DNA of 64,000 bases, taken from Candidatus Omnitrophota bacterium. GTDB lineage: Bacteria; Omnitrophota; Gorgyraeia; Zapsychrales; JAKLDJ01. Below are positions 3,001-27,000 of this stretch, piece after piece. Both the position numbers and the translations under genes were made by a program. The notes under the pieces were generated by a model that made no database searches, was not told the origin of the DNA, and was given only the letters and a program-made list of their open reading frames with translations. The stretch's first letter is position 1. Each line of letters starts with the position of its first letter. The DNA is taken from the NCBI GenBank assembly GCA_022703585.1, contig JAKLDJ010000001.1, forward strand, positions 374,891-438,890, read 5' to 3'.

Positions 3001-6000
3001 AGTCCTGGTATTTCCCTGCCGTACAGGGTAGGTAGCACCGATATGCCTGACGGCCCACAATACCCTTTCACGGGCGGCATTGAATTCCGACAGACTAAGC
3101 TGTGCCCAATGCCCGGAAGACTCTCCTGCCTCTTCGACCCGGGCTTGTGCCGCCAGGGTAAACAGCCCCATCAAGGCCGCGAAGGGCAGAGCAACGAGAT
3201 TAAAGGCGTTAAGATTGTCCGCGGCTTGGTTAAATAATTTCCGGCTTTCATCGGCGGTCAGTTCGCCGGATTTGATTCTTTCCTGCAAGAAATTCAAGGC
3301 AATAGTGATAATGCCGGACTGAAGAACAGCTTCTTTAATTCGTTCATCCCTCCCGGATTCCTTAAGTAATTCCGCCATCCCTGCCGAGCCCGCCACCTTG
3401 TTCCCGTAAATATCACACCAGGCTTTAGGCTCGCCAAAAAGCATTACCGGATCTCTGCCTTCATACCTTCCTTTATCTTGAGACACTCCGTATTCTTTAA
3501 CAGCTTTCACATAAATTTCTACAGCTTCCGCCACAGTCATATTCCGCTGACGCTCAACCAAAGCTTGAGAAACAGGATTTAAACTAAACGGTTCTTCATT
3601 AAAATCACTCATCATTGCCCTGTAGCGCTCTTCGTAACGGGCAATATTTATTTCGACATCGCTCATTCTCCTTGCTATCGCTATCCCTGCCAGCGGCATC
3701 GACGGCCCGGCATCGACGAGATTTTTGATTACCTGAAATACGGTCGCGCGGTTATAGTAGGTCTTTCCGGTTTGCAAATTCTCGGCAATCTTTTCCACGC
3801 GCCAGCCGCCGATTTTATGCGCTAACAGCTCAAGGGCTTCTCTGGCATCGTCAATCTTCCATTCGTAGCGCGGCAGGCCGACGCTTAAGGCAATCGAACC
3901 CCGGTCGCTGATCAGCTCTAACGCATCGTACAAGATCTCCACGGCCAAGTCAGGGTAGACATCATCAATGACATTTAAAGCAACAATACCCTTGATGGTA
4001 CCCGCACCGGCCAAGAGCGCCTTGGTGGCACCGGAAAGTTCGCCGAGCCGTTCGCTGATAAATTCGATGCCTTCAACCAGGCTTATGTACTGGGCCGGTA
4101 CCAATTCGGCGCTGTGGCTGCGTGCCATTGCCGGGTTATCGCAGTTCTCATAAATCGGGTCAATGCTGATAACCCTTGCCCCAAAAGCAGCTGCCGCAAT
4201 CATCGGCTCCATAAAGTACCTGCCGCCGACAAACACCACGGTATCGCCCTCGGCAATATTCATCGTGGCCATAAGTTTTACGGCATCCTTGGCAACATTC
4301 CTCTCCCAGCCAAGCTGGGCAATGACGGAATCAGCATCCTGCGCCATGCCGAATGCGAAAACAAACGGTACGAAGCTATTGAGAGATGAAGTTTCCCCTA
4401 ACTTGATACCGCTTAACGCTGGGGTGGCCGGTAAGCTGGCGAACAGCTTTTGTGTCATCGGCATTGAGAGCTTCCCAGGAGTTTTCTTTCCCATTGCGGG
4501 AGTAAACTTGCCCGTTGTGATTGAAGATAAGGAAGAGCCGAGTTTTGCCAGTAGCCTCTTCGCGGCCGGCGCCAAAGACGCAATCGTCTCCGCTAAATTC
4601 AACAACGTGATCGAATGTAATGTGTTTGTAGTCTGTCCTGTGACTGGTGACTGGTGTCTGGTGACTGGTGTCTGGTGATCTAATGTCCATAATGCACCTC
4701 CGTGGTCCGTCCCGACGATACGTCGGGACGAGATCTCGGCGAATTTGCTTTGCAAATTCGCCGGACTTTGTTTAGGTTTTTGGTTATAGTCATTCTGTGT
4801 AGGAATATTGTGAATTCCGTTGAAGGAAGAAACAGCGTTTAAGCGAGGCTTTACGCCGGATATAAAGGAAATAAATCCAGGAATCGTTCTGGTAGGATTG
4901 CTAACAGCAGTTGCGCTCTCGTTATCCACTCCGACACCCTTGTGCGAGGAGGGGCCGGCTGATGTCGAATTGCCGTGAATACCGGTTGAATTGCCCGCGG
5001 TACGATAGATAACCCTAACCCCTGTCCTTGCTTCTCCGAGAGTGAAAATCGGCTGATACAATACCGGCATGTTGGTGGCGGGCGCAAAGTGCATCGGCAA
5101 ACCCTTACCGCCGTTAGGTGTAGGCGCCACCGGCGGCACACCGTTCGCCGGCACATTCACCGGTATGGACTTAGGTTCGGCAGGCGCTGGAGCAGGGGTT
5201 TGCTCGGCCACAACTCCCCTATCCTCTCGAATTTTCCTCAGATCCAACGACGGCAACCCGGAATGCAGACCCTCTCGATTGTGAGGCTTGACACCCATTA
5301 TTTGAGTTAAGTTCTGGAGGGCCAGAGAGACACCCATAATACCGACCATCAGATTCTGGGATGAGACCGCCGCCAGGACAAAGAGGCCGCCGCCGACCAA
5401 GCCGATGGTCTGCGTTGTCTCAAGGCTGTTTTCTTTAAAGGCGTTGACGACCGAGGCAATGAATTGAGGGAACGTATAAATAGCAACATTGATAACGAAC
5501 GCCGACCCGAAAACCGGAGGAATCATTCCGCCGGCGCCTAAGAAAATCGCGGAAGGAACCGCAAACATCGCACCTGCAAATCCGATTCTCCATAACTTGG
5601 AACCTAAGCCGGAATAATCGGTCGGCTCCAAGAATGCCTGCAGCATACGGCCGCCGTCCATCGGATGAATAGGCAAGCCGTTAAAGAACCCAAGCATGAC
5701 CGTTAAGGTACCCAATTGGGTAAAGAAGTTGAGATTTCCCAATAATTCCCTAATCCCGCTGATATCTTTCATCGCGTTATTGATTTGTCCCAGGCTGGAG
5801 GCATGCACCAGATTTTTAGAAATATAATCCCATAACTGAAAGACACTTCCGTCGTGGGCCGCGGCCGGTAAATGATTCCCAACGATAGACAGGTTGCCTG
5901 TCGCTAAAACAGCCGCGAGATAGACGGCAGGAACAAAATAGGACATGACACGTAACGCCGAAGACTTCGCCGTCAAGCGGTGAGTGGCATACATGAGAGA

Positions 6001-9000
6001 ATAGAAACCGGCCACGCCGGCCACAGCCGGGAGCAGGCCAAAACCGCTCTGCATTAAACCTATCGTAAACCAGGTCGGGCCCATCAAGAACGTATCGCCG
6101 ATGGGGCCGACGCCGGCAACCCAAAACGCCTTAGCCGGAGTCAACTCGCTTAAGCCCTTGATGGTTGCCAAACCGCCCATGGCGGTAAATTCCATTTTCG
6201 AGGTAACCTTGCCGAAGCGGGCTGCCTCGATACTATGCCGGGGTTCGTGATTGATGAAAATCGCTATGACCGGAAGCATGGCGGCAGCGATTATCCCGGG
6301 AAGAGTAGCGCCGGCGCTAAAGAAGTACGCTGAACCCGCCAGAGGAACAATCATGGTCAAGCTGCCTCTGATCTGTGTCCTGTTGGACGAAATCCGTTTC
6401 GGCAACCTGAACAGGTCATGGGTTTTAAAGGCGCTTTCTCCATATAGGGTAAATTTATCAATATTGGCAATCATGCTGTCGCTCGCATATTGTTTCAAGA
6501 GGTGGCTGGCGACAGAAAGCGCGATACCCAATGACGCCGTGATAGCCATAACCATAACCGTAACAGCAGAAATTTCGGCCCCGGCTATGACAACAGAACT
6601 TACGCCAATCGATTTCGCGATTGAACCTAAGGCGGCTACGCCCGTACCGGTCTTCGCAAATCCCCACAAGCCCATACCTAAGAGGGCATTGCCCATCTGG
6701 GTGGCGCCGTGTGTCTTCGAGGTTACTCCCATCTTCTGTCCGAAGTAACCTAAAACGCCGTAGGTTAAATGCGCCATAAAACTGCCCTTCATAAGAAGGA
6801 AGACAGCGACGGATAAATTCGGGACCGCGAGATTCCATTTGGTAACCCTGACCGGTTTACCCGGGTTGTGGGCTCTGGAAGCCTGCCAGTCGGATAAGTT
6901 AAACCAGCTCTTAAGCTGTTCATGGTTTAAATGCATGCCTTTAAAGAATTTAATGCCGCTGACTTCGCCCATGTCCGATTTGATGGTTCTCTTTTCAACG
7001 GTGCCGTCTGTCTTTTCTTTGTTAATATCCAGAGCGGCTTTTAAGTCTAACCGTTTCGCGTTCGATGAGACCGTTCCTTGCATTCTTTGCGCAACATTTC
7101 TGTCTCTGACGAGCAGGCTGCCGGCATAAGAACCGTTGACGCTAAAGATAACATTGCCGCCGTTTTTAAACGCCGCGAAGAATTCTTCTTTGTTCGGGAA
7201 CCCATAGAAGTCGACCGTCCCATCTTCTTTTTCTTTGCCGAGCAATTGGCCGTGTTCGCTTAAAACAACGGCTGCGAGATAACCGTCTTGTTCGTCCGGC
7301 GCCCTTAAATACACCAGGCTGGGGCCTTGAGAAATGTGAGCTTGCTTGATGGTAGCGCTGGTGTGGAGATCTTCGATATATTCACGGTCTTCAGCTGTTT
7401 CGTCCGCAGCAAATTTTTCGTAGGCCGCCTGGGTGGTTATATCCATCTTTCCTTTAACCTTGTAACTTTCGGGAAGATAGCCTTTTGCCTTTAAGGCATT
7501 CTGGAATTTCTGCACCCGCTCCTTCAGTGAAAGTGAGAGTACATCTAATTCGACGCGGGATACGGTATACCCGGCCATGGAAGAATCAAATTGAGCCAGG
7601 ACCTGATTGATGTCACTTTCGTTAAATTCGCTCCAAAGAATTCTTCCGGCCTCGCTCCTGCCGTCTCTGACATTGTCAAAGTGGCGCTCGATCATAGCCC
7701 TGGTGAGTTTAAGCGGCGGCATGGCCCGTTCACTGTTTCTGGAAATCCCGCTTAAATTGGCAACCAGCGTCAACAGAGAGTCGGACACCTTCTTCTCTGC
7801 CAAGGCTTCTTTGACGGCAAACAACTCTTCATTGCTTAATACCCTCACCTTATCCGCCATCCATCTTAAGCTGCTGTGCTCCAAAAAGGCCTGCTGGGAT
7901 TCTATTGACCGTTCTTTGGCTTGGCGAAATGCGATGAATTCTTCCAGGTCACGGACAATATGGTTTCTGACAAACGGCACTATAACAGCCGGATTCTTCA
8001 GCTGTTTGATCATCTTGTTAGCCAAACCGTCTTCGTCGTCTTTCTCCAGGATCTTGCCAAGGCCCTCAAAGAATTGCCTTTCACCCTGGCGGACCATCGC
8101 ATCCGTTACCTCAGAGCGTGCCTGGGACATGTCGGCGATGGCTGAAATTCTGTCCAGGCCAAAAATTTCGGCCGCGTCTTTTAAGGTGTTTAACGCACGA
8201 GCCAAACCTCTGATTTGTTCGGAATAACTCTTCTTTTGGCCCAAAGACGGGGTCATGTCGACAAAGCGTTTTGTCTGCTCAACGACATGTCTTGCCTGCC
8301 GGGTTTTAAGAATTTGCGCTTTCTCCTCGTCGGTTAAATCCGGGCCGGCATAATCCACAACCATAGAACCGTCCTGGCTGGTTATCCTCTTTAAGCCTTC
8401 GCCCGGCTCAGGAACAGCACCCAGGTGCATTGAGGACGATTTTGTTACTGCTTCGTATTGCTGCCATCCCTCAATGCTTCTGCCTTCTTTGTCCTGCATA
8501 AAGGGTAATACCTGCCTGGAGAATTCACGAACGAGACTGATACCTTTTTGGACAAAGGAAGCATCGACAGCATCCATCTTAGGCTTGACCGCCTTGAGCA
8601 TGTCACGCGCCACGGCTCTATAATGTTTGACCGTCTCTTCTAATCCTTGGGTCCTCTCACCGACCATCAAAGACAGGATTCTTGATTTGGCGCCATCATT
8701 TAAGGTGTCATTGACCCCGGGAAGCGCGAGCATGATGTTGGCTTCGTCAATATGTTGATTCTTTAAAACATCAGCTTCAAGGCCGGCGGCGTTACGGGCA
8801 TATTGCGCGTTATCTGCTGAACCCAACCTCTTTGTTTGATCGACCAAGCTTTTTGCCCTTTGATTGAGACGGGTGAGGGCAACCGGTTCCTGGCCTTGCG
8901 CGTCTTTTTCGGCAAAGATATAAATGCCTTGCTGGCCAAAGGCAGAAGTTTTTCCGCTAAAGCGCTTATCGCCTTTTTCGCAAGAAACAACGTAGACGCC

Positions 9001-12000
9001 TAAAGTCTGGCTCTTGGAAACTCCTTCTAAGAATAAGGCTATGTCGGGCCTGTTTAAAGCCATGGCCGCGCGCTGGGCGGACTCAATTAAGTCAGAGGAA
9101 GCTTCCTCTCTTTCCAGGGATCCCTTGTGGACGGCGCGAAGGATGGCTTTTTCTTCTTTGGTTGCCTTGAACCGGCCGGCAAGATCCGCGTCCGGTACTC
9201 CGATCCATATCTTGCGCAGTCTCTGCAAGAATTCATCTTGGCCGTACTGTGCCGGATCCTTGAGGGCATTCCAGAGCCGCTCCAAGCCGTCTTTCTTCTG
9301 AAGCATCTTTCCTAATCTTGTTCTTTCGGCGGGAGTAAATTCTTCTTCGATATCTTCCAGTTCCCTTGAGCTCGCCAAGTCGGTGATACTTTTCCACTTT
9401 CTCTCTTTACGTTTATTTTCTTTCTCGATATCAACCGGTATATTGCCGTCACGCAGGTTCTGGGCGGTGATAGGGCCTAAGTCGAATTTCTCATCCCTCT
9501 TGTCGGCGCGCTGCTGTAATTCCTTAAAGGCCTGGTTGGCTTTTTCATCATAGTCAAATCCGAAGAGATACGGTTTTAAGGCTTTCTCGGCTCTGGCGCG
9601 CGCCTGCCTCTCAACTTCCAATTGGTAACTTTCTTTTGACTGGCCTTTTTCCTGCACTAAGTCTTTCTTGACTTCTTTCTTAAATTTCTTAACAATCTTC
9701 CAGAGCGGGCTGTTTTTATCCGCGCTATAATTAAAGAGCGCTATCGTTATTCTTCCGTCGCTATTTCCTTTTTTGCGTAATCCCCTGGCCTGTTTCGCCA
9801 TCCAGTATTCCAAAGTCCCGCGGTAAATACCTAAGTCTGACCTGTCTTTAAGCCAGCCGCCCTTGACGTGATGAACAGCCGATAACGTCAACCGCCACAA
9901 GCCTCTGGCGGCCAAGATGCCTTCTTCCGGGCCTTTCTTGTTTTCGTAGTCGTTAGACATAAGCGTGAAGAATTTACGCAACGTCCAATTGCCTAACACC
10001 TTTTCTTGCTTAGCGGCAGGAACACTGTTTTCCAGCAAATCATACGCCTTGCCGGCTCTTTCAAAATCCTGATTAGACAACATCCCCGCTAAGGCCATAC
10101 CGTTTAAGGTGTTTTCTTTGCGGCCTTTATCGCCGAGAATAGCTTTGCCCATTTCGGCAAGTTGTTTGAAGGTGAGGTCAATCTTTTCCGCCCTTTGCGG
10201 CATTTGGTTCTTGGTTAAATTCCACAAGAGATATCCGTGGAAAGGATGGGTTTTCAATGAAGAGAACATCTTCTTGAGCGGATTCTTATGCGCGCGTAAC
10301 TCCGTAAGCCACGGTGACATGGTGTTGAAAGATTTGTTAAGCGGCGTGTAAATATAGGCCAGGGTTTTTATAACCTTGTTTCTGTTGTAGCGGGCATCGA
10401 TAACGCTGGATGAAATTGATTCCGAGTGCGCGATGGGCAAGAGGACCAAAGACGCCAGGAAACCGCCAAAATTAGGATGCTTTACGAGGAATTTAACCGC
10501 ATTACTGACAGCGGCTTTCCTAACCAGGGCAACAGTCCTATGCTCCGTATCTTCTCTTTTTTGTTTCTCGTCCTCAACATTCGTACGAAGCAATTTAGCG
10601 GCGTTAACCACGGCCGCGGAATGTTCATCGCCTTCAGGTTTTGCAACTTGATAGCGGGCGATATAACTATTCAAAGCCTCAAGGACAGCCTCTCTGTCTC
10701 TCCAGCTTCTGCCGTCGCTCTTTAAATAAATATTTAATAAATCCTCATTCCATTGGCTGTCTAAGGCGCTGCCTAAACCGGCCTCGTCGGCAACATTGCC
10801 GATAACTTCGGCCCTATGTTCACGGATGACGGTATCGATAGCGCTGTTTAAGGCAACCAGGTCCGACTGGCCTTGGGCGCTGGTTCTATTCTCGGCCTTA
10901 TAGGCCTTGAAGGTATCGCTTAATTTGCGGCCCTTCTCCGAAAGTTCAATCACGCGCCCGAAGGCATCGGTGCCGACAAATCCGTACTTGGCCGCCAGGA
11001 CAAAATTCTTAACGGTGTCGATAAATTCGCTTTGTTCGCGGGATGGTTTTTTGGAATTGTAATTTCTAAAGAGTCCGTTTTTATTTGCGTCAAACAGGGT
11101 ATTAACAAAAGCGGCGATATCGGAATCCTGCGGAAGGGTAGAAAGAACATCGCGAATAGCCTGCGGCGCTTCAATAAGGCTGGAGGCGACTTCGCTGACC
11201 TCGTCAATAGCGGCTGCCGGTGCGCCCCGGATTTGGCCCTGGCGAGCGACATCTTCGGCGGCCTGATTTTTGGTTTCGCTGGGTAAATTCGCGAGAGCGC
11301 CGAATCTTTGGTTGTAGGTATGATTTATCTGTTCCATCTCCATGTCGCTGGGGGTATGGGAAGCCCTGACGTCGGTAATCCGGCTGGTATCTTTTACGCC
11401 TGCCATTTGGCGGGCAGCCCTTAAGGAGGCTTCGAAATCTTCAATGATGCCGCGGTTTTTGGCGAACTGACGGAAGAGATCCTGCTCAACTTCGCTAAGT
11501 TTTTCAAGCTCGGATTTTAATTGAGAGCTGCCGGCAGGGAATTGTTTCTTAAGTTCTTCCCTTTGGATGTCCACCCGCACTAAAAGCCCTCTCTCCGCAG
11601 GCCCTATTCTGGCTTCATCGATATAGGCCATCATGTCTTCAGCCGGCGCACGGAAATCGTCGAATATCTTTTTGGTGCGGTCACCGGCGCGGCCGATCAA
11701 CTGAACATCGGCAACCGCCGTATGCTTGCTGCCGATCCTGACAATTCTTGCCGCATAGGCTTTTGCAGCATCTGTGGCAAGCGCCAGGAGGTTTGTACCG
11801 TCGTTTAACTTATTGACGACAACAATAAGATGCTTGCGAGAGTCTTTGCTGCTGTCTGCGTATTCGCTCCTAATAACTTTCCCGAGTTCATCCATTTTCT
11901 TGGTTTTGGCATCGCCGATAGAACCTTCGACGCCCTCGATACGGACATCGTCCCCGGCAAATGCCCCCTTTCTCTTTAATTCTGTCAATCGTGCGACTGC

Positions 12001-15000
12001 CTTATAAACATCGTCACCGCTTTGAGTCACTAAAACCGTGACCCGCACCGGCCATTCCTCAAAAACTTCATTAGGCTTATTGACTTTCACCGATTTGGAT
12101 TCTCTAAGCGCCTGCGTAATGCCCTGGATAGATGCTTCCAGGATATTGCCGGCGGAAACCCGTATATATTTAGCCATTCTTAATTTGCTATCCATATCGA
12201 CCCTGTCTAACTGCAGGTAATTTGCATTGGTAAAGCCTAAGACCTCCAACGGGCCGCGCACCGGAGTAGCCGTCATCAGCACTAACGGGGTCGGCGCATC
12301 TTTACCGACCAAGAATCTCTTGATGGAGAAGATATCGGTCATATCGCCTCTCAAGCTGAAATAATGTTTCATGGCTTCGATATTACCCGCTCCCGACTTT
12401 AAAGCCGTCAGGGCGGCTTTGACCGCGCTGCCGTGAATATGGGTGGGCCTCGAATCACCTTCCTGGGCAAGCCGATAATTGAATTTGACCAAATCTTTTT
12501 CGTTTAAGATAAATACCTTGTCGCTGCCGGTCGTGCCGCCTTCGAAACGGACAAGCACATCGCTGTCACTGTTGCTGGTGAAATACCGAATACCTTTTTC
12601 TGTTTCCATGCGATGGGAACTGCCGCTTAAAGCTTCCCTGTAACCGGTTTCGGCATCCATAATATAGGGAACCTTTTCATTCTTTTCTATAACATGGACA
12701 ATGATACCGGTAACCGTTTCACCGTTAGTGTCGGGGAATTCGAATGTCCGGTAGATGTCCCTGGTTTCTTTATCCAGCAGGCTCATGATGGCGACATCAA
12801 CCGCCTCTTCAAATTCTTCGCGGATCCATTTTTCTTCTTTCAAATTCAATCCCGGGACCAGTTTCTGCAGATGAGCCATGATTTCCTTTTTAACCTGTTC
12901 ATTAACAGCTTCTCTGGGGATCGTCGTGCCGTTGGGGTGAGTCGCCTGGCCCCAAACAATAGGTGACGGGCGGTGAGTTGAATCAAGATCAGAGCGTCTG
13001 AGCTCAACCTCTTTTATAACCTCGCGGAATAATCTCATCAAATTCCAGCCGCTCTTAAAGTTGGCATCGGTCAATTGCCGTTCAGGGTCAATGCGAATAG
13101 AATCAATAAGGCCGGGTTCGGTAACGGCAATGTGGGCATCGTCCCAGATAATCCTGTTCTTTCCGTCGTTAACCGAAGGCTTGAATGCGCTCAGATAATC
13201 CTTTGAACCTTTTATTTTTTCGGGGCTCTGGACTGCGGCAGCTGCTACGGCTTGTGTTTCGTTCGTATCGGCACTCACGGCCGCAGCTTCTTCGTTGTGG
13301 CCTTTGGCGATATTAAGGAAGGTCTGCTGAGGCATGACCACGATATCAAAGTCTTGGGTTAAATCAGCCATCTTAACTTCTCTGAGTAACGCCTTGTAGC
13401 TTCCGGCTTGCTTTGCCGTTTCCTCTGCTTCTTTCAAGGACATTTCGGCAACGCCGTCGGCGTAAGTCCAGACAGAGAAATCGTCGAGCACGATACCGAC
13501 CCTAACCGCCGGTTTTCCGTCCGCGAGTTTCACAGCGCTGACGGTTCTTAAGTAGGCGTCATAGACAGCGGCACGCGGCATGTTGGTGATGTCGGGAGCG
13601 AGGATAAGCGATTTGCTCTTGAAAGGCCGGTTTTCCAGGGCTTCCATTAACTGGAATGAAGCGCGGCCGGCTGTGGAAACAAAAGTTTTACCTCTACCGG
13701 TAGGCCACTCAATAACCACTCCGCCAAAGTTCGCGAAGACCATGCCGGTCGCTTCGATTTGTTTTGACTGAAGCTCCAGAGGCCTTTCGGAATCTTCCAT
13801 ATTGGCCCTGGCGTCACGCATGAATTTCACTAACGTTTCTTGCGTGTCATCGCTGACGATTTTTCCGATAATCGCTGATATGGATTTTTTCTCGGATTCG
13901 GGAATATTATTGTTTGTTAAGAATTGCGCCAAAGCCTGTTTCGGAGTTACGTCAGAAAATGCCGCGTAAGCAACCGCCTCACCCAAACATCTTAAAGCGT
14001 ACTGTTCTTTGTAGGTAACAAGCTGCTGCGCGGCCTCATGGATAACAGATTGGTAACCAAACGGCCGAACGGAATCTCTTTCTGCGTCCGTGCGAGTGGC
14101 TGTAAGCGCAACATCATTGCCGCGAGTATACTTCGAGGCCCGGACATCAACAGCCGGGGAGGGGATCCGACCGCGAGCCGAGCCTCTGTTACCAAATAAA
14201 CCTTTCCATAAATCTTTATCAAACAACATGCCCGGGAAAGAGTAGAGCGTGGTAGCGGAGACCTGGACACTGGCGTTGGAGGAGGGGTTTCCAACGTAGG
14301 CCAGGTCTCCATTGTTAAAAAGATTATCAGAGGCCCGGACATCAACAACCGGGGAGGCCCGTCTCGACTCGGCTGATTGTGTAAACGAGCCGAGGCGGAG
14401 GTTCCGATTGGACGCCCGGCCTTTAGAAATAATGACGGATAAATCTTGGGAATTGATGTTATTTTCAGGTAAATTGGAAGGCGTTACAGGAGTTACCAGA
14501 GACAAAGAAGCCCTGCGGGCGATTTCGGCAGAGTTTGTGTGTGCGGATTCAACCGCGAAACTATTTTCTTCTGCTTTGAAATTCCTGGTCTCTTCTACTG
14601 CATTACGAACATCTTCAGCTGACCGTGGCTTTGATGTTGCCGGCTCGGTAGCGGGCTCTTCGTTGACTTCCGTGGCTTTAGCGGTATCCCTTAATAAGAC
14701 ATCGCAGACTACTAAGGCATTACCAGCCTTTGGAAGGCCGGTGACAGGTAATGTCCTACTTAAGGAACCATTTGCCGCTAGAATGTCAAAAGAGCGAACT
14801 ACTAAGCTGTCTTCGCCATCGTTTCCGATGACCGGTCTGGCAGAACCGGAGATCTCTACTGCTTGTCCTTCTATTACCAGGCGCAGACCTCTCGCACCTT
14901 GAACTTTATCGGCTGACTGTCTACGGCTGTTTTTCTGTAAACCATTACCAGCTAAGACATTACCTATAAAGTCTGCTTCTGAGCTTTCGCTCCGTCTTGC

Positions 15001-18000
15001 TAATGCTTTGGCTATATTTGCTACCATAGCTGTGAAGGTGGAAGCACTACCAAACACCCGCACAACTAAGTCCATGGCTTTTTGTCTCGCGCTCTTATTC
15101 AACCCCGTCTGCGACACTGCGAGAGTGCCGGACGGCTTCGTGGAGTTGTCATGGATGCCGCTGGTTAATTTGCTACCGTCTTTTACTTTCAATAGAATTT
15201 CATTCTTAAATCCTTGTTGATTATTAAAGGCAATCTGCGGTGCTTTTACAATATCGGCTGAAGATGCCCCAATCCCCTGTTGATAAGCAACCACGCTCAC
15301 CGGAGCCTTGCTGCTGCCGGAACTTGAACCGTCATTCCCTGTGGGTTGCGGTGATACGGGCATGGAAACAGGCCCGGGAGCTGTCGGAGCAGGCGCTTCT
15401 TTTCTCTTCTGGCTAGGCGTATTATAAGGACTGTCGATAGGACTTTGAGGGAAATCAAACCTGGACTGACGCATTCCATTATCAGTATCGGCAAAAGCGA
15501 GCAGAGGAACATTATCAATGCCTAACCGAGGCTTCGGCATGGCTGTATTTACCCAGCGCGGTTTTGTCCCATTTAAGCTTGCTATCGGCGGCACGGCGAG
15601 AGCAGGCGGCATTGGCGCAGTCATTATTGAAGGCGGCAATATTTGAGTTTCCGGTAAAGCGTTCGGCGCCTGAGGCACAGCGACTGAACCGGATTTTAAT
15701 TCCGGCAGAGGAGGCATAGCCGATCCGGCCCTGATATCAGACAAGGGCTCCGGCTGCGATGGCTGGGCCACAGCAGAAAGATTGCTTACAGTCGGAGCCC
15801 CAATGGTCACTTGGGACGATTGGGTTAGCGGTATTTCTTCTTTAATACGATTGGCCTTTAAGGAAATGTCGCCTTGTCCATTGGCCGGCGTATCTGTACC
15901 GAAAGGAAGGTCCATCCCCAGTTTTGCCGACTCCCGTATTAATTCTGCTAAATACTTTTCTTGCGCTCGCGTAACTTCGACGTAGAACGGCGGGACGGCT
16001 CTTTGGCTGTTATTCAAGGCTGTTGAATCTTGAGATTTCCATGCAGCCTCAAATTCTTGAAGAGTCGTTGCCCAATATTTATGGATGGAATCCACATAAG
16101 GTTCATTCAGCTGGACCTGAAGTTCGGGTTGAATAAACTCCGGCCAGCTCCGGTCTGCTTGCATATCGACGATGCGCGACTGCCATCCCTTTCGCCATTC
16201 AGCGCTTAAATCAGCGGGTGCGGCCACTTTCTTTGACACAATGATCGGAACACGGTGAGGATAATTCTCAACGGCTTTCTTAAGATTATGAACGGCGTCT
16301 TCACCATAAGCCAAATAATCCATGTCAATAACCACGACGCGGGAATTCGGACCGATAGTCCGGCCGTAATTGCGAGCCACATTAACAACATCAAGATCAA
16401 TGACCCCGCGCCTGGCCATCTCAGCTCTCAAGGAAATAATATCATTCTGGAAGTCTTCAATCGCCTTATCATAATTGCGATTAACCGCCGCGCGTTCTTT
16501 TTCGGTCGTTGATTTAGCCAGAGCTGCTTCCCGCTCCTGGTTCATGCGATCTCTGAAATTCGCGAATGTCTCCACTTTTTGCTGAACAAAGACGAACGGA
16601 TATTGATGAATCTTTCTGGGCACATGGCCGCCGCGTATCATCAGTGAGACATCCTCAAGGACAATCGCTCCGGTTAGCTCAGGGCCTAGCCGGTTCTTGA
16701 TAATATCGTATCCTCTGGCAAGTTCGGGTGCTAAAATTTTCTTGCTGTAGAAGTTCAAATCCTCGTGGGGAATTTTGACAACAATATCATAATCGGGGTC
16801 AGCCAAATAGGAACTATTCCCGGGAACGGCACGGTCAATCGCGAATGCCGCAAGCGCCCCACCTTCATCCAAGTAGGTAAAGACGGGCCCCTGCTTGGTA
16901 ACCTGGTATCCTTCTTTCACTGTTTCAATCTTATACCGCACAACATCTACGGCAGCTTTCTCTAAGCCCTGGCTAATAACGGCATGGTCGAGTCCGACTT
17001 TATCTAACATCGGTTGAAAATCTTCCAGCTGGCCAAAGCGGTTTTGCCGTGCCACAATGAGACCAATCAAATCGCTGGGCCGAATATCAATACGCGTTCC
17101 GTTAATAGAAAGGTGCAGCCAAGAACTCTGCCCGTCGCCGGTTTCCTTGTTCGCCGGCAGGGCAACGTCGCCTCTGCTGTTATCAATCGTCGGGTTGGCT
17201 TCGAGAGCCTGGCGCTTGCTCGTCATAGCGATCCTGCTTGACAGGTTATCAGAGGCCTCGGTGAATGCCGGCACAGGCATTCTTTGCGCCAATATTCCCG
17301 ATAACATCCATCGCACCCTATCGACAAGAGAATCATTGTTGCCTGACGGAAGGGCCACGTACTTTTCTGCACGGGTATAATTTATTTCTGCCAGCGGCCT
17401 GCCGGTGTTTGTATTCACAGTCATCCTGCTGGAGGTGGGTTTGTTGGGAGCAGTCACCGGGCGCTGGAAGATTCTGGCTAAGGCATCGGCCATATTCTTT
17501 CCGCCATACCAGCGTTGCGCGCCCGTCGAGCAGCTATCCAGCATGACTTTCCCGTCCGCAGTAAGAACACGGCTTAACCCGGCGCGCTGTAATTTCTTAA
17601 GGACAACCGGCATCGTCAGCACGTCCGTCTCTTTGGGCCCGAACTGAATAGACCCCCTTGTCCCGTGGCCGGCGATAACAACCAGAGAGGCAGGCTGGTA
17701 TCTTGCCGGATCCTCTAAATTCGTGGCGTCTTTTAAGGCAGAAACCATCTCATCCGGAGTAGAAGCCTCATAATACAAAACACGGTAATGCTTTGTCAGC
17801 GCTGTGGCATTGGTGGGATTCAAAAGGGCATTGTTGTGATCTGATTTTGGATAGACCACAACCGCCAACGGACGCGTGTCATCCACCTTGCCGAGGCGAT
17901 GCAACAGCCTGTTTTTTACCAATTCTTGGCCGGCGTTGCCCCGAAGAGCCACTGTTCGAATAATGTTAAGATCCGGTACGCGATAGTAATTGGTCACCAT

Positions 18001-21000
18001 CTTGGGGAAGCTTTGTTCGCTGACGGGTTTTCCGGCAAGTTCGAAAATCGGAAGGGCTATTTTCTCGCGCAGATCCCTTACCATTTTCTTATCCGTCCGG
18101 CGTCCGTCTTCTTTGGCTAAATTCTCAAATTGAGCTATTAAATTTGAAATTTCTTTTTGTGCAGCCCTTATCCTGGCTGCCCGCGGCGAAGGTTCTGCCA
18201 TCGAGGGCGCTTTCAGAATAAACTGCCAGGCAGCCCTGGGAGAATAATGCCTGCCATGGCTTGCCAACTTTTCGATAACCGGCAGGGAAAGATTTTCCAT
18301 CCTAAAGGCCGGCATGTCAAAGGCGGCAAGAATTCCTGCGGCATCCATATTTCCCTTCAAGACTTCTTGCTCTAAAACAGATTTGGTTTCGGCGGCATAA
18401 TCAGGTACGGTAGCCGCTATCCAGGCAAGGGCTTTGGATACTCCCGGTTTATTGACATGATTCTTTAATACGGCAGTAGCTATCCGGGCAAGGGCCTGCG
18501 CCACTCCCGGCTTATCAAGCTCATTGGTTATTTGGACAAGGGCCCAGGGCGCTGCCGGTTGATCGATATGGCTCTTTAATACGGAATAAAGCTGTTTGGT
18601 AAACTGGGGTGTCATATCCCGGGCGGTCATAACAAAAGCCTGGGGCTTGCCCTTTTTCTTAGGTAACGCTCCGACGAGAGCTTCTGCGGCCTCCATGTTC
18701 CCTTTGACAGCTTCTTGTTTCAAAATAGATTTGGTTTCATCGGCATAATCAGGCACGACAGTGGCCATCCAGGCAAGAGCCTGAAGAACTCCCGGCCAGT
18801 CAATATTTTTCTTCAGCATAGAATAAACTTGTTTAGTAAAATACGGCGGCATATCCGTAATTGTCCTGGCAAGGGCACCGGCGGCATGCTTGTTAATAGC
18901 TATCTGACTCTCTAGCGCGGAAATAATCCGGTCGGTAATCTTCGGATTGCCACGAACCATAGCCACGAGGGCATCCGGTGTATAAATATTGTGCGGATTA
19001 TCTCTCGCGATCTCATCAAGCGTCGTAATGGCTTGCTCTGTGAACTCCGGATTCACTTTTGAGAAATCAACTAATGCCCGAGAAGTACGATACCCCGCGT
19101 TATTTTTGGCGCTCTCAATCAAGGCCGTTGCTACTTGAGGAGTTAAGCCGGGATTTGTCAACGATATCGTCCAAAGTTCCTGCATGGTCTGGGTAAAATC
19201 GGCATCGTAACTATTATCGTCACCGCTATCGGACAACATACCCTGAAGCTCTCGAATTCTATCATCGGTAACGGGCCTCGCCTGAGCCGGCTGACCGGGC
19301 ATTGGTAACGGTCGGATGCTCTTTATATTTTCAAGAGGGAAACCATAAGCTAAAGCATTATACCTGGTGTCCAGGCTAATTTTATCCCTGCCTACGACGG
19401 CCGTTTTACCATCAATAGATACTATCGTAGTTCCGGGTTCTAGCCGTGCGAGTTGTTCAGACGTAAGAAGAAGTACATCTCTACGGATGCGGGCTCCGCC
19501 GTTTAACAGAGATTCAATATTAACTGCCAAGTGCTGTTGGGGTTCTGCCTGGGCCAGCAGGCTGGTACCGGCGACTTTCGTTGTCGACGGTATCGGGCTG
19601 CGGTCGGCTTTCAGGGCAACGTCGCGATTATTATCAGCGGTCAGGTTGGTGTCGGAAACTTCCTGAAGCTTTAATTCTGCCATCGGCGCGGTGGCCATTG
19701 CCTGCACGCTGACAGGCTTTGCCATCTCGGACGTACGAACCATTTTAGAACCGGCTGCCGCTTCCATCACTTTGACGGCCGGTGCTGCGGCGGCCGACTC
19801 TATCGGGCCGGAACCAAGAAGCATTCCGCTTTGGGGTGTGTTTCTCCTGGAAAGTACTGCACGAGCTATGCGTGCGACGGCAGGCCTCGACATCACCGCA
19901 GAACTCGGGGCAAAACCAGCTCTTGTCCACCATGTCCAGTGATTCAAAAGTAAGTCGCCATTGTTCCGAATGGCCATGAACTGAGCGTTGGCTATGCGCC
20001 AAATCTCATCTTCGCTAAGTCCAGCCTTCTTAAGTTGAGGCTCTAAAGCATGTTTCACTCGGTCAGGATGAAGGGCTTTTAAATAATCCCGGACCCGTGT
20101 CTTTACTTGCGCTTGAGACAAGGCAATGGCCGGCCCTCGCGGGTCATAAATTCCGAAATAGTCGAGGATATACGGATGGAACTTCTTGTGGGTAAATGCA
20201 AACACGTTCGACAACCCATGGTCTTTGATGGCTGAAGACAATAAACCGGTACCCGTGCTCTTACGACGCAACTCCGATACTTTTATTTCCCCTTTCTTCA
20301 ATAAAAGAGCATACAGGACCCCGCTAACAAACTTTCGGTCACGCAGATATGTTTTAAGAATATCCGGCGGAACCTTTAATGCAGCCTCTAATTCTTTGAG
20401 CGTTGGGGTATCGGGATGGTCCACCAGATACGAGGTCAAGGCGCTATTAAGCGGTTGGCCTGTCCGTTTCTTGAAATCCGCCTCTGTACGAACTTGTTTG
20501 AGGAAAAGTCTGCGGTTAGCGTCCTCATTGAACACTTCGAAATACTTGCTGATTGTTGACTGACTAACGCCTTGGTTCTTCGCTATCTGCGTCTGGATGC
20601 CATCACCTTGCTTAATCCATTGCGCCATCTTATAATGGCCGGGATAATCAAACGACGGTTTATGCAACTGCCCACGGGCGCGGTCAAATTCTGCCTGACG
20701 CTGCCGCGGATCGCCGTCGATATACCGCTTTATATATCGTCTGGCTGCGGTTTCGCTAACGCCTCGGGCCTTGGCAATTTCTGCGGTACTCGCACGAGTT
20801 GAAGCAATCAGTCCGCTCATGATGCTATCGCCGGGATAACGGTCACCCTTCAAGCCAACTTCTTGTTGTCGCGCCTTTGATGCCGTAGCAACCAGAGCGG
20901 CGTATTTTCCGGTAGGATCACCGCCATTGTTGCGCAAATTTCTAACCCAGTCTACGGCCGTCGAGTAACTTACATCCGCCTCAGCGGCAAGAACGCGCAA

Positions 21001-24000
21001 ATCTCCATCGACCCTGTCTAAGGACGCACGCAGCCATTCATCGCCGCCATATTTCTTGTTTGCCGGTTCTCGCTGATTGGTGCGGTCAGCCTTTAAGGCA
21101 ATGTCGCCTGCTAACGCCGCGCTCGCCGCCAAATCACCGCCAGGCAACCGGCTTTCGCCCTTTAATAATCCACCACTTTCTAATAAACCGTCGCCGGCTA
21201 AGGATGGGACACTGTCAGCCAAAGGTGCTTCTTGTTCCAAGGCATAAAGATCGCGGCGGGTTTGGTCGGCCCTTAGAGCTTGTTCCTTCATCTGGCCCGG
21301 AACATCCTGGCCAAGGTTGCCTCTAGCCATCGGCGGCAATAACAATCCGGGAACAAAAGGAACGCTGCCGGGGAAGGATTGCTGCATCGGCGCCGGTAAG
21401 GCACCCCCGAGATTAGATGTTTCTGCCGGAATATTGGCCTGGCCTATTGCCGGAGCCGAGGGCAGGGCAAAAGTTTCTACATCAACTCTGGCTACTTCCG
21501 CGATACGCCGGGCATTTTCATCGGACGGCAATAAGTCACCTTTCCCGAAGAGAACAACGCCGCCGGAGAGAATAGTTTTAACGTCTTCACCTTTTAGTTC
21601 TTCCAGTTTGACATTACCGCTATCATCTAAAGAAACCCGCGAGAAGATATTGATCTCTCGTTGGATCGGACCTTGTTCTGTCTGGACATCGGTAAAACCT
21701 TTTTTTGCAATAAAGACATTGCGGTCATATCTTTTCTGGATACGTTCGCGGGCCGCCTGTCTTAAATCCGTATCGCGGTCGACGGGAACAAGTTGAACCG
21801 CCGGTAAGCTCGCGAGAATTGTCCGCATATCGCGCTCTATGCGAACATTTTCGGAATGGGTTCTTTTCGTATTCGCACGGCTGATGGCTTCGTGCAAGAT
21901 GGCACTGGCCATTCTTGCCTCGTACGATGCCTGGGCGAGGAGGGGTTGGCCTACCGCCTCAAAATGGGTTTTGGCATTGGCGGCTGTACGTGTGATATAG
22001 ATGTTGTCCAGATTCTTCCCTGCGCCGCCCGCATGGGCTCCCATGAGCGTATCTTCCGCTTCCATCTGATACATAAAGCGGGCCAATTCGACAGGAGTCA
22101 ACTTCTCCTGACGGTCTTGAGCTGAAAGGCTTTGCATGGCCTGCTCGCTGACAAGATTGCGGCGTAAAAGCGCCTCGGTTCTCTCAAGGATAGCGTCCTG
22201 GTCCAGCTCAGAGAGGAAGAAGATGTGCCCTCCCTTATTAGCCGGGTCAATCTGCATCTGGATGATCCTGGCTGCTTCAAGCGCTTCCTGCCTTAATTGT
22301 ACGGACTCCTGGTCATCAAGCCCTTCTAAGGCGTCAGCAACTCTGTAAGCCATTTCCAGGTCCGCTTTGGCAGCCTGCAATTCTTCAAAACCGGTTTGTC
22401 CTGCCTTAATATCCGTAGTCGCCTTTACTGAGCGGCCGGTGGTGTTGACCTCCTGGCGAATAATGCCGTTCTCGACAATCCTGCTGAAGATTTCGTCAAA
22501 TCTCCGGCTGGGGATTTCCATGGCTTTCGCAAAAGCTTCCCGGCCTACGGTAACGGAAACAATTTCTTGGCTGGCACTGCCGCCGGGCAAACCTAATCCC
22601 TTTAACAAATCGCCCCGGCCTTCGATAGTGTATTGAACAGGATCACCGACTTCTTTGGTGGCATCCGTAATCTGATAAGTTTGCTCAACGATTTTTATAT
22701 CGTCGCTAAATCCTGTAAGAAAAGGCGCGGTAAACTGATGCGTGGCCGAATCAACCGGCACCAGGGTTCCGGCATAATGAACAGCCTTGACTTTGGCCGG
22801 ATCGGCATTGCCAACATCAGCAATACTGACGACATAGCCATGCTCAGTTATTCTATCGCCTGTTTTTACGCCCAAGAGATCCTGCTCTTGTATGCCCTGA
22901 GGAAGTTCGCCGATTTCGCGGTGCAACAGACTGTGAGTTCCTGCTGTCGTATCGACGCTGTACACTTCCCGGACAGGAATCGATATTTGCGAATCATTTT
23001 CATGCGTAACGATTGCCACGCTGCCCTGCAATGAAAACCGGCTGTTGTCCTTTATGGCAGCCGTGACAAATCCGCCTTCTTGCAAAGGAACCGCGATAGC
23101 CACGGGGTTTTTATCGTTATCTTTATTATAAATAAATCCGAATTGGGGAATGAGCCCTAAGGGAACAGATCCGTTACTAGGAACGAACATCTGATTGGGT
23201 CCGAGTTGGATACCGGCACCGGGATTCTGAAGTTCGGAAGAAGGTAGCGTGCCCGGGATGACGACAAAAAACGGATTTTCACTTCTATAACTTTTTATTT
23301 CAGGGCCATTGGCGCCGTTGATTGCGGTTGTTACGATAACCTTCGGCGGCGCTCGGGAGGCTACGAGTCCCTGATCTGCGGCCACCACGGGTTTAACAAC
23401 CTCCGCAGTAACAACGCGCTCGACGAGCATCTGGCCTTCCCGGAAACCGGGAGAATACGTCGGCACCATATCTTTAGATAATCTGGCATTAACCGCCTGT
23501 TCAAATTCTTTCGGGGTTTGAGCTTCCTGGACAGATATTCCTTTAGATAAATCTCCGGACTCAGCAGTTAAGGTAATGCGGATATCCTGCTCGCCTCGCA
23601 TAATGCTTTCAACTTCTGCCCGAGTCCTGGGACTTAATTCCCTAAGTTGTTCCGGGTGCATGCGGAAATGTTCTCGGATAACTCTATTGGCCGAATTAAC
23701 GGTTTCCTCGATCGCTGATTCTATAGTTTTCTTGGCTTCTTTAGCCGGCTCAGCAAGACTGCTATGGCGAAGGGCGTGATTCGATTGCGCAATCTTATCT
23801 CTAATCTGTTGAAGTGCGCCCCGTTCCGCATCCGTTGCCGCATCGGCTTCCCATCTTTCTTGACGCATAATTCCTTGTCTTTGGCCGTACTCGAATGTGG
23901 CTTGAGCGGTTGCAGTCCGATCGAAGCTGCGCTGAACCGGGCCCTCCATGTGCTCAATATACTTTGCGGGATCCGAGAAATTAACAACATCCAACGCGAT

Positions 24001-27000
24001 AATTTTTCTGGGAATAAGTTCGGGGTGCGCATAATCAGCTTTGGCCCCTTGCTCCCGAATAGGCGCTCTACCTCTGATTAAAGCTTGGCTGGCAAGTTTT
24101 CCGCGTGTAAATTCATTGGTAATAACAATTAAGGTGTCTTTGGGATGCGTTTTAAGGCCCAACATGTCAACGGTATCGCCCATGGCGCGCGGTTGGCTTA
24201 AAAGAACGGTCCATTTTGTATCGGGGTTCTGCATTCCGAGATCAAACTCTTCCTGAGTCAGCGGCCTTTTATTGGATTCCGTAACAGGCTTCGAAGGGTC
24301 GCGCAATATAAATCTTTCGCTTCCGCTAGGCCCTTCTAAGGCACCCAAGACAACCATGTCCGTCCCCTTGGATACAGCGTATCGACGGGCGGCATCCTGC
24401 ACTTCAAGGGCAGTGTGCCCTTCTCGACCGGCGGCATCAACAAAAACCGCTCTTCCGCCAACAGCCATTTCGCTGGCGGTTTCCTGAAATCCCGAATTCA
24501 AAGAAATTGCCTTTCCGTCTCTTGACCTTAAGGCTGTATCGCGACCGACATCAAATCCGGGAACCTCTCGTATGCCGGCCATCCTGCTTTCCGGAACTAA
24601 GAGCTCACCGCCGCGTAATGCTAATTCTGCTTGCCCGCTAAGGTCGCTTAAATCATTACCGGTCGCGTCTATTCTTCTTGTGGTGAAACCGCGTTCGCTA
24701 AATTTCGACCAGAAATCTTCAACCCGGACTCGATCGACAGAAGTGCCGACAAAGATCGGCCCCTGCCTGCTAACGCGTATACCATTTTCTCTCGCAATGA
24801 TACGGGTTATGGCATCCTGGACCGCGGCTTTATACGGATCCGCCATAACCACGGCCGGAGAAGCCGCGCCGTCAAGGTCTGTGGTCAGAACTCTGTCACC
24901 CTGCAAATGACCGGTCGGCTTTGCCGCTTCTTCTACCGCGGATACAAAACGGGCGAATTCAGCCTGTTTCTCTCCGCGTGCCCTGGCTTCAGTTTCTACC
25001 CCCAACTTGCCCAGGACCTGATCCACTAATTGAGGGCTGGCCGATGCCGTTCCATCTTCTCCATAAATAATCTTGCCTTCTTTTCTAGCTGTCCAGGCAA
25101 GCTCTGCCGCTTCATAGACTCCTTTGGGACTGGCTATTTCCTGTTGATTCCCGCCCCGTTGCATAGGCACCTGATAGGGTTTAAACTCGGCATCATATTG
25201 CCAGGCAATTCCTTTGCTCTTGGCGTACAATGCGTCCCAAATTGCGTCTGATTCGCTTAAACGAAACGCTTCAGCTTGTTTCGCAGTCAACATCAAAACA
25301 TCGGTCCTGGCAATCAAGTCGAGCTTGTCTGCTTCCGTTAAATCACTGTTCCAACGCTCGACTACAGCTTCGCCTTCCAACATTTTCTTGATTTCGGGCA
25401 TGCTTCTGTCTATGGCCCCTGCGTTATCTATAACAAAGGCCATGCCGCCTTCGCTAACGGCCTGTTTTCCAACCAAGGCAACACCCAACGTACTCTTGGA
25501 ACCGCCTTTAGCAATGTTTGCTAAGACTCTCGTGGTACTACGAGCGCGTTCGATAGCTCTTGTTAATAACTGCAATCCTTCCTTTTGACCTATATCTTTT
25601 GCGTCGGGAGAGCCGTAACCTTTTTTCAAAAACTTGGGTATGTCAGGATGAAAACCTGCGCCCTGCACGCTGAGATCTTCCCCTCCGCTCGTCATCAATT
25701 CCGCTACCTTCGCTGCCGACGGGCCGTCGCTGCCGATGACAGGTCTCGCCTTGCTGTCGACACGGGCTAAACGGTCTTCACTGCGACGCTCGCGGATGCG
25801 CTCGGAAACTCTGTCCGAAGCCTTGCGGCCAAGCTCTCTCAAGCCTCTGGCTGCGCCGGCGACTGTTCGCCCTAATTCACCTAATGTCTCTGCGTCCAAA
25901 GGTACCCCGGAATAAAGAGTGACGTCGCCGGAATTACGCCGAACTTTGGGTTTAGCCATCGGCGATTCGGTTGTCGACCGTGTCGCAGGTTTGGCCAAAC
26001 GGCTATCGCCTTCGCCGGATAATCCGCGGTTTCTATTCTTTGCCCCTAAAAATATCCCGAGTCCCAACAGACCGGTTAAGACAGGCAGGCTTGCATCACT
26101 AAGAGGACTTCCGGGTAACGGGGCGGGCGCAGCCGGGGCCTTGGGAGTATCTTGTACCGTAGCAGGTAGCGGAGATGATGCTAAAGTCACAGCCTCTACT
26201 ACCGCGCTTGCTGGCTTTTGAGCGGGAGTTGCAGCGATAGCCTCCGTGGGTTGAGCTGTTTTCCTGGTAGCCGCATCCGCTTTGAAATTACTCGCGATGG
26301 TCCGCATGGCCTCCTGACGCGCTCCGGGAGAATTCCATTTTCGGGCGGTTTCAATCATATCTTCGGTGATGCCGGCCGGAATATTATTCTTAGCCCTGAA
26401 TGCATCAAAACTACCGCCCAAGAAACTATTAGCATGATCAAAGGCCATTCTTAGGCCAAGTGCTTTGCCATAATCAGAATCTTTGCCTTCCAGTTCGCCA
26501 ATCTTTTCTCCTAAGTGATAGAGTGTGGCCATGATTAATTCATTGCTCAGGTCTCCTCTATGATCAGCATTAATGGCAAAATATAAATCCTTTCCGTCCC
26601 GAGCAACCCTCACATGTTCATCCGGATTCGGGCTTTTAAACCACCCCGCAAACCAGGTAGAATCTTTATACTGATCCAATTCCTTATCCCAGCCTAATGC
26701 GGTTTTGACTTTATAGTCTAAGTATAATGTTCTATTGGAAAGTGTTGCATCGTAACTTGCCCCGCTACTGTCAGGCAGTAACAGTGACAACTGCTCTATG
26801 GCTGATCTTGAAATATTACGCTCAACGCGGTCAATCCACATATTGCGATTTAAATCGACCGATACCCCGCCATCAGCAGGTGAAATAACGTACCGGGCAT
26901 AATCACTCGGCATGTTGCGGTCTGCCCGTGCTCCTATTTGGGCCCAATTTTCATGCCGGGACATACCCACCACAGCTTGTTTGAAATATTCGGCATTAAG

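Follow-up and report, generated by a model that had tools for sequence, protein, structure and literature searches.

A 64,000-nucleotide stretch of DNA from a Candidatus Omnitrophota bacterium (GenBank assembly GCA_022703585.1, contig JAKLDJ010000001.1, positions 374,891 to 438,890 of the forward strand; this whole stretch is called the window) was analyzed computationally. A segment of a giant open reading frame (ORF) on its minus strand was found to encode a domain of about 190 residues which, on the combined evidence of sequence profiles, conservation and a predicted structure, is very probably a clan CD peptidase domain of the DUF4347/Tce1-like branch. The two predicted catalytic residues, His8298 and Cys8343, are both intact. 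The role proposed here for the domain, as the likeliest of those weighed but put forward tentatively, is that of a processing peptidase of the giant polyprotein in which it lies.

Location of the domain and its catalytic motifs

Residues of the giant protein were counted from the ATG at window position 42558 (minus strand). Direct translation gave a protein of at least 14,186 residues, the reading frame leaving the window at its left end. A 124-residue peptide quoted in an earlier note on this DNA, which had been written from the sequence alone and did not state the strand, was located by exact match at window 17880-17509 on the minus strand, where it forms residues 8227-8350 of the giant ORF. 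The peptide is encoded on the minus strand; a plus-strand feature was rejected, the plus translation of 17460-17880 being riddled with stop codons.

The earlier note had pointed to a hydrophobic strand ending in HG and, about 40 residues further on, to a second one ending in DSCSTG. Both were read directly in the translation, as ASLVVIAGHG (containing His8298) and, with a spacing of 45 residues, GKVMLDSCSTG (containing Cys8343), and the observation is confirmed as real. In clan CD of the MEROPS classification the catalytic His is followed by Gly, and each of the catalytic residues is preceded by a hydrophobic block; SLVVIAGHG and KVMLDSC have this form. Scanning the visible 14,186 residues with the family profile described below located a single copy of the domain.

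Family membership and conservation

When a 236-residue stretch was searched alone against 5.8 billion proteins, two matches of 395 and 359 residues were obtained (E = 2e-14 and 3e-10). A profile made from three sequences and run exhaustively against 1.84 billion cluster representatives retrieved 2,197 proteins at E≤1e-3, 924 of them at E≤1e-10, and a word-indexed search with a 37-sequence profile recovered 8 proteins. With the window sequence excluded, a profile of 36 relatives scored the giant protein at 143 bits over residues 8211-8399 (E of about 5e-37, scaled to 1.8 billion sequences).

Among 131 aligned family domains, 130 keep the His and 130 keep the Cys. Other near-invariant positions of the family are an N-R pair within helix 1, D-x-R-P-x-A ahead of strand 1 and an Asp behind it, a Glu that follows strand 2, the G-H-G and S-C-S-T-G-x-G motifs themselves, and an Asn after the Cys. 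The copy in the window retains 14 of the 16 positions at which conservation across the family reaches 90% or more. This family-wide conservation, together with the significant profile matches, indicates that the domain motif did not arise by chance.

The family is large and unannotated, most of its members lying under the Pfam thresholds and no NCBIfam model existing for it; scans of NCBIfam and PADLOC matched no family. A scan of metagenomes with the single domain found no orthologue, while scans with the three-sequence alignment returned distant relatives only (25-36% identity), which lay outside Omnitrophota and were small free-standing genes where checked. In the two closest free-standing relatives (P0001 and P0002; consensus of alignment A1) an N-terminal M..IPF is shared, and no obvious signal peptide was seen. 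The giant protein was returned by neither protein search, though its neighbour genes are in the collections; very long ORFs seem to be missing from these collections or fragmented in them. Because the giant is missing from the collections searched, absence of the domain from other Omnitrophota giants is not inferable from protein searches.

Profile comparisons with clan CD families

DUF4347 (PF14252) was the nearest, and the sole, Pfam match of the window domain, with 24.9 bits for the 213-residue domain alone (cut-off 24.6). The score dropped to 22.4 and 19.3 bits when the domain was scanned inside longer pieces, and the match spans only positions 42-129 of the 164 in the profile. Within the family the three most frequent Pfam matches were DUF4347, found in 22 of 37 relatives (best 4e-9), CHAT, matched weakly by 19 (best 1.7e-5), and Peptidase_C14, matched by 4 (best 1.4e-3). 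A protein annotated in Pfam as DUF4347 (P0160) matched the family profile at 5.8e-14. The family thereby links DUF4347/Tce1-type effectors of type VI secretion systems (T6SS) with CHAT-like proteases.

Sequence-profile searches of the PDB gave nothing significant (chain 9qpe_G, E = 0.7; the CHAT protein 8tl0, E = 1.4). In the weak HMMER alignment to 9qpe_G the family His is set on the IATHGT motif, which was computed to be His186 of Tce1. Comparison of the family with human caspase-3 by hhalign, using an approximate caspase sequence, returned a probability of 5%, with the His in register.

Predicted structure

An AlphaFold2 (AF2) model of the window domain, built with the 37-sequence alignment, had a mean predicted local distance difference test (pLDDT) score of 90.0 and a predicted template modelling (pTM) score of 0.88. 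Its elements follow in the order helix, b1, a, b2, a, b3 ending in G-H-G, two short strands, a, b4 ending at the Cys, a, b5 and three antiparallel strands. In the numbering of the model a strand at 84-90 leads into G-H92-G, and a strand at 126-135 leads to C137; the pLDDT falls in the two loops that follow the His and the Cys. In clan CD proteases b3 carries the catalytic His and b4 the catalytic Cys, each at the C-terminal end of its strand, and b3 and a3 are separated by a small beta element (PMC4357240). The sheet of this fold has six strands in the order 2-1-3-4-5-6, b6 being antiparallel. The model likewise places the His after b3 and the Cys after b4, and the predicted order of helices and strands is that of clan CD, the comparison resting on linear order.

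Foldseek searches of the PDB with this model placed CED-3 first (E = 1.5e-4, probability 1.00), followed by caspase-8, -9, -3 and -11, with the cysteine protease domain (CPD) of TcdB (3PEE), the Craspase CHAT chain 8d9h_E and legumain lower down. The clan CD matches thus cover four families (C14, C80, CHAT and C13). Their TM-scores are modest (0.35-0.41); generic alpha/beta folds (aminotransferases, KaiC, RAD51) were also matched, at slightly worse E-values, and 9qpe_G was not within the top 50. A second model, of the domain from a canonical family member (P0004), reached a pLDDT of 96, and its Foldseek matches were PIGK (C13), Tce1 9qpe_G (probability 1.00, TM-scores 0.56/0.61, root-mean-square deviation 4.7 Å), caspase-8 and legumain. 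The clan CD reading that the earlier note had drawn from the motifs is therefore supported, for both fold and dyad, by the model, the Foldseek matches and the conservation. That note had also named a predicted structure of some other fold as grounds for dropping the reading; the best matches of the predicted fold were clan CD proteases, and the reading stands.

Architecture across the family

Of 130 domains analyzed, 112 form the C-terminus of proteins of about 250-900 residues. DUF4116 repeats lie upstream of the domain in 50 of the 91 full-length members, and others carry HEAT, ARM, ankyrin or TPR repeats. Named hosts of the family include Margulisiibacteriota, Saganbacteria, Myxococcaceae, Bdellovibrionota and Omnitrophota. 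Around two of the free-standing genes (loci L004 and L012) the neighbours were genes of glycolysis and other housekeeping functions, with no conserved partner and no secretion system.

A different arrangement was found in another Candidatus Omnitrophota protein, annotated as C39 domain-containing (P0091; HOW43197.1, 3,430 residues), which has an N-terminal C39 domain and copies of the domain described here. One copy is split into a His half (1700-1791) and a Cys half (1985-2063), with about 190 residues between them; in another the order is reversed, the Cys half (3071-3136) coming ahead of the His half (3177-3251). These positions suggest a permuted or interlocked arrangement.

Other modules of the giant protein and genomic neighbourhood

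The features located on the giant ORF are collected in Table 1. A hydropathy scan showed one strong N-terminal hydrophobic helix (residues 46-64) just before the C39 domain. The M50-like module has the motif HEPRH within a hydrophobic segment and NGLPIHPMDGG downstream of it, and is surrounded by a cluster of hydrophobic helices (residues 11984-12226). The earlier note had deduced a second, independent protease activity from the motifs; such activity is presumed, and the clan CD domain would rank second among the three protease-type modules that the visible giant carries. The protein is probably membrane-anchored and largely extracytoplasmic, its topology relative to the membrane being one that we infer.

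Table 1. Coordinates of the giant ORF and of the modules and predicted catalytic codons within it (positions in the window)
Feature	Position	Strand	Residues	Details
Giant ORF	1..42558	-		Stop-free from 42597 to 1; ATG at 42558 with GAGG ahead; 3' end beyond the window
Peptidase_C39 domain	41704..42072	-	163-285	Cys163 in NCGIYAL, His in HFVTV; Pfam PF03412, 32.3 bits (cut-off 22)
Two tandem helical units	18328..18870	-	~7898-8077	Period of ~116 residues; upstream of the protease domain by ~130 residues
Clan CD-like (DUF4347/Tce1-like) cysteine protease domain	17359..17928	-	8211-8400	~190 residues; bounds from family-profile envelope; assignment from Pfam, AF2 and Foldseek
Codon CAC, predicted catalytic His	17665..17667	-	His8298	In VVIAGHG after strand b3; motif reading
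Codon TGC, predicted catalytic Cys	17530..17532	-	Cys8343	In MLDSCSTG after strand b4; motif reading
M50/site-2-protease-like module	5623..6279	-	~12094-12312	PF02163, 25.3 bits, under the cut-off of 27.2

The two helical units share the consensus ...FTKQ.YS.LK..ID...PGV.(Q/K)ALAW.A..VPDYA.ETKS.L.QE..KGNM.AA..L, with a local alignment score of 168. The region upstream of the protease domain gave no significant match to any Pfam repeat, DUF4116 and HEAT included; by analogy of position the units may correspond to the helical repeats found ahead of the domain in free-standing members. No further significant Pfam domain was found over about 12,000 residues of the giant. Weak matches to HTH_29, HTH_23 and HTH_28 (21-22 bits, below their cut-offs) at about window 20700-20800 on the minus strand (residues ~7251-7284) are probably spurious.

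A Tad/Flp pilus cassette (43722-63842, minus strand) shares the strand of the giant gene and lies directly upstream of it. It encodes RcpC/CpaB, a secretin with a TonB_C tail, a fused CpaE(ParA-like)-CpaF ATPase and two T2SSF (TadB/C-like) proteins; three large ORFs of the region (1,083, 476 and 978 residues) had no Pfam match. A Tad cassette also flanks one giant-protein locus described in a 2026 preprint.

The protein agrees with the published description of Omnitrophota giants in its length of more than 7,000 residues, its C39 domain near the N-terminus and its signal/anchor segment. Such giants, with an N-terminal C39 domain near a signal or anchor, have been proposed to be cleaved into smaller polypeptides and have been implicated in predation (West-Roberts et al. 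2023). In the published analyses consulted, the peptidase domains mentioned as candidates for processing are C39 and S8; caspase, CHAT and DUF4347 are mentioned neither by West-Roberts et al. (2023) nor in the 2026 preprint on Omnitrophota giants. Caspase-fold domains in very large exported bacterial proteins are already known, and none was found reported for an Omnitrophota giant.

Proposed role of the domain and alternatives

Under the tentatively preferred reading, the giant polyprotein would first be exported; the clan CD domain, acting in cis or on another copy, would then divide it into smaller working parts. The N-terminal C39 domain and the M50-like module on the C-terminal side may take part in the cutting. 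Processing is preferred because the domain is internal, and this is the architecture that Zhang et al. (2012) tie to processing: reasoning from architectures, they assigned internal caspase-like domains of large secreted toxins to processing and C-terminal ones to the toxins themselves (PMC3482391). The presence of three protease-type modules in one chain suggests maturation by cleavage, and the second Omnitrophota protein (P0091) likewise pairs an N-terminal C39 domain with this domain. Several points weigh against the proposal. Activity is not known, nor is a cleavage site or a processed fragment; catalysis and substrate are presumed. The prevailing arrangement in the family, a C-terminal domain behind helical repeats, suggests proteases that act in trans on a chosen target over autoprocessing. 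Inositol hexakisphosphate (InsP6), the activator of CPDs, is to our knowledge not expected in prokaryotic prey. In the window copy the LDxSD motif after the His is lost, including an Asp conserved in 124 of 130 family domains, and two residues past SCSTG a Gln replaces a Gly that is present in 121 of 130. Finally, the window's own sequence had no Pfam match at E≤10 to CHAT, C11, C13, C14, C25 or C80, so that the profile check against the first five of these, which the earlier note had proposed, gave no direct match.

The family architecture and the toxicity of Tce2 point to the main rival role, nearly as likely as processing and equally tentative, in which the domain is an active clan CD protease serving as an effector: displayed by the giant at the cell surface, with the helical repeats just upstream as its guide, it would cleave proteins of prey or host, or other external proteins, in the manner of gingipains, the T6SS effector Tce2, or the repeat-guided separase and TPR-CHAT proteases. 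The layout of the 112 C-terminal members, behind DUF4116, HEAT, ARM, ankyrin or TPR repeats, is one that recognizes targets, and in the giant, too, a tandem helical repeat comes directly before the domain. Tce2, which belongs to a related group, owes its toxicity to yeast to the active-site Cys. The implication of Omnitrophota giants in predation, the adjoining Tad cassette and the occurrence of the family in lineages of predators or episymbionts (Bdellovibrionota, Myxococcaceae, Margulisiibacteriota, Saganbacteria) all fit such a role. The internal position of the domain nevertheless speaks against it under the heuristic of Zhang et al., the upstream repeats of the giant have no detectable homology to DUF4116 or HEAT, the free-standing members have housekeeping genes as neighbours and neither a partner nor a secretion system close by, and no substrate is known.

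The loss of the LDxSD Asp and of the Gly means that the window copy may have altered specificity or be inactive. Three further deviations, N147D, P154Q and D171N, fall at positions that are 73-85% conserved in the family, and it is in the loops after the His and after the Cys that the model loses confidence. A degenerate copy of the clan CD fold, kept as a regulatory, peptide-binding or structural module, would agree with these changes and has parallels in the caspase-like repeats of toxins described by Zhang et al. as serving only for binding or as scaffold (PMC3482391) and in Tce1, for which no toxicity was seen. This explanation is unlikely, since the copy keeps the His, the Cys, the Gly residues beside them and 14 of the 16 most conserved positions; the inactive copies of Zhang et al. 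are without catalytic residues, while the window copy has both.

It is very improbable that the domain lies outside clan CD altogether, as a generic three-layer alpha/beta domain (a Ser-nucleophile hydrolase or a nucleotide-binding fold) in which the HG and SC motifs are coincidental. The SCSTG motif does suit a nucleophile elbow of the form small-x-Nu-x-small, both of its Ser residues are conserved (122 and 111 of 131), aminotransferases, KaiC and RAD51 occur in the Foldseek lists at similar TM-scores, and neither the PDB profile searches nor the caspase-3 comparison gave support to clan CD. Conservation of the Cys nevertheless exceeds that of both Ser residues, and the conserved His stands 45 residues before the nucleophile, where the main strand ahead of it ends, as in clan CD and unlike alpha/beta hydrolases and glutamine amidotransferases (GATases). 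Not one alpha/beta hydrolase was among the top 50 Foldseek matches, whereas those of highest probability (0.97-1.00) were clan CD proteins from four families, bar one serine palmitoyltransferase chain; DUF4347, CHAT and C14 also lead the Pfam matches in the family. A Ser-nucleophile alpha/beta hydrolase acting through SCSTG was rejected on the position of the His before the nucleophile, the Cys as the most conserved residue and the lack of hydrolase fold matches, and a Cys elbow of the GATase or DJ-1 type on its wrong order of His and Cys.

A more speculative extension of the processing reading, and a rather doubtful one, is that the domain forms, with about 2,200 relatives, a distinct and so far unclassified clan CD family of repeat-guided proteases, which Omnitrophota would have recruited, together with C39 and a site-2-protease-like module, for giants that process themselves. 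If that were true, the giants would correspond in bacteria to the polyproteins of viruses, and would be an analogue of MARTX toxins aimed at prokaryotes and activated by something other than InsP6.

Comparison with known systems

In sequence the window domain is closest to DUF4347/Tce1, borderline by the Pfam cut-off, while in its action it may, by analogy, resemble a CPD or a caspase-like releasing peptidase; profile tests place it outside C80, CHAT and C14. DUF4347 is carried by PA0256 of Pseudomonas aeruginosa (PMC8262886), which is Tce1, an effector of the H3-T6SS loaded on Hcp3 and solved by cryo-electron microscopy (PDB 9QPE, chain G); its authors regard it as a putative cysteine protease similar to the TcdB CPD (PMC13323088). 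They aligned His186/Cys240 of Tce1 and His65/Cys115 of Tce2, a structural relative of Tce1 without a DUF assignment, with the dyad of TcdB, and reported that the C115S substitution abolished the toxicity of Tce2 to yeast and that no toxicity was seen for Tce1 (PMC13323088). All three have the His before the Cys, at similar spacings of 45 in the window domain, 54 in Tce1 and 50 in Tce2, and Tce1 is the best structural match of the P0004 model. Tce1 and Tce2 differ from the window domain as small (190-310 residues) Hcp-loaded T6SS cargo, the window domain lying within a protein of over 14,000 residues beside Tad genes, and the motifs proper to its family (EIIxNR, DxRPLA, YYEA, LDxSD, SCSTGxG) lie outside the matched core of DUF4347.

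The CHAT proteases (PF12770; Craspase TPR-CHAT/Csx29, HetF) and separase (C50) resemble the family in that most of its members consist of helical repeats followed by a C-terminal caspase-fold protease, and in the non-significant alignment with the solved CHAT protein 8tl0 the HG and C motifs are in register. The window domain differs from CHAT in having no CRISPR or signalling context, and its length of about 190 residues is far below the typical CHAT size. The releasing peptidases of polymorphic toxins (PMC3482391) are also internal caspase-like domains of large exported proteins with other peptidases, including ones of C39 type, and are predicted to cut their carrier. Those proteins end in a C-terminal toxin with an immunity gene and contain RHS or filamentous repeats, whereas no toxin/immunity pair was seen in the window, beyond which the C-terminus of the giant lies; lineage (Omnitrophota) and scale differ as well.

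For autoprocessing, the best functional analogy is the C80 CPD of MARTX and of the Clostridioides difficile toxins TcdA and TcdB. It too is a clan CD domain inside a very large exported multi-domain protein, and in TcdB the spacing from His110 to Cys155 is 45 residues, as in the window domain. C80 CPDs are activated by InsP6, bound in a basic pocket of the beta-flap, and cleave themselves after Leu. The differences are that the window domain has no Pfam Peptidase_C80 match at E≤10 and only a weak Foldseek match to 3PEE (E = 1.8e-3, TM-score 0.37), that it gives no evidence of the InsP6-binding beta-flap, that its targets are likely to be prokaryotes, and that its Omnitrophota host protein is unrelated and 3-4 times larger. 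The domain is a plausible built-in pair of scissors for the giant or for its targets, and bears on how Omnitrophota export and mature giants of tens of thousands of residues and use them in predation. Its intact dyad provides a mutable pair, His8298 and Cys8343, with which to ask whether such giants cut themselves as MARTX and the large clostridial toxins do.

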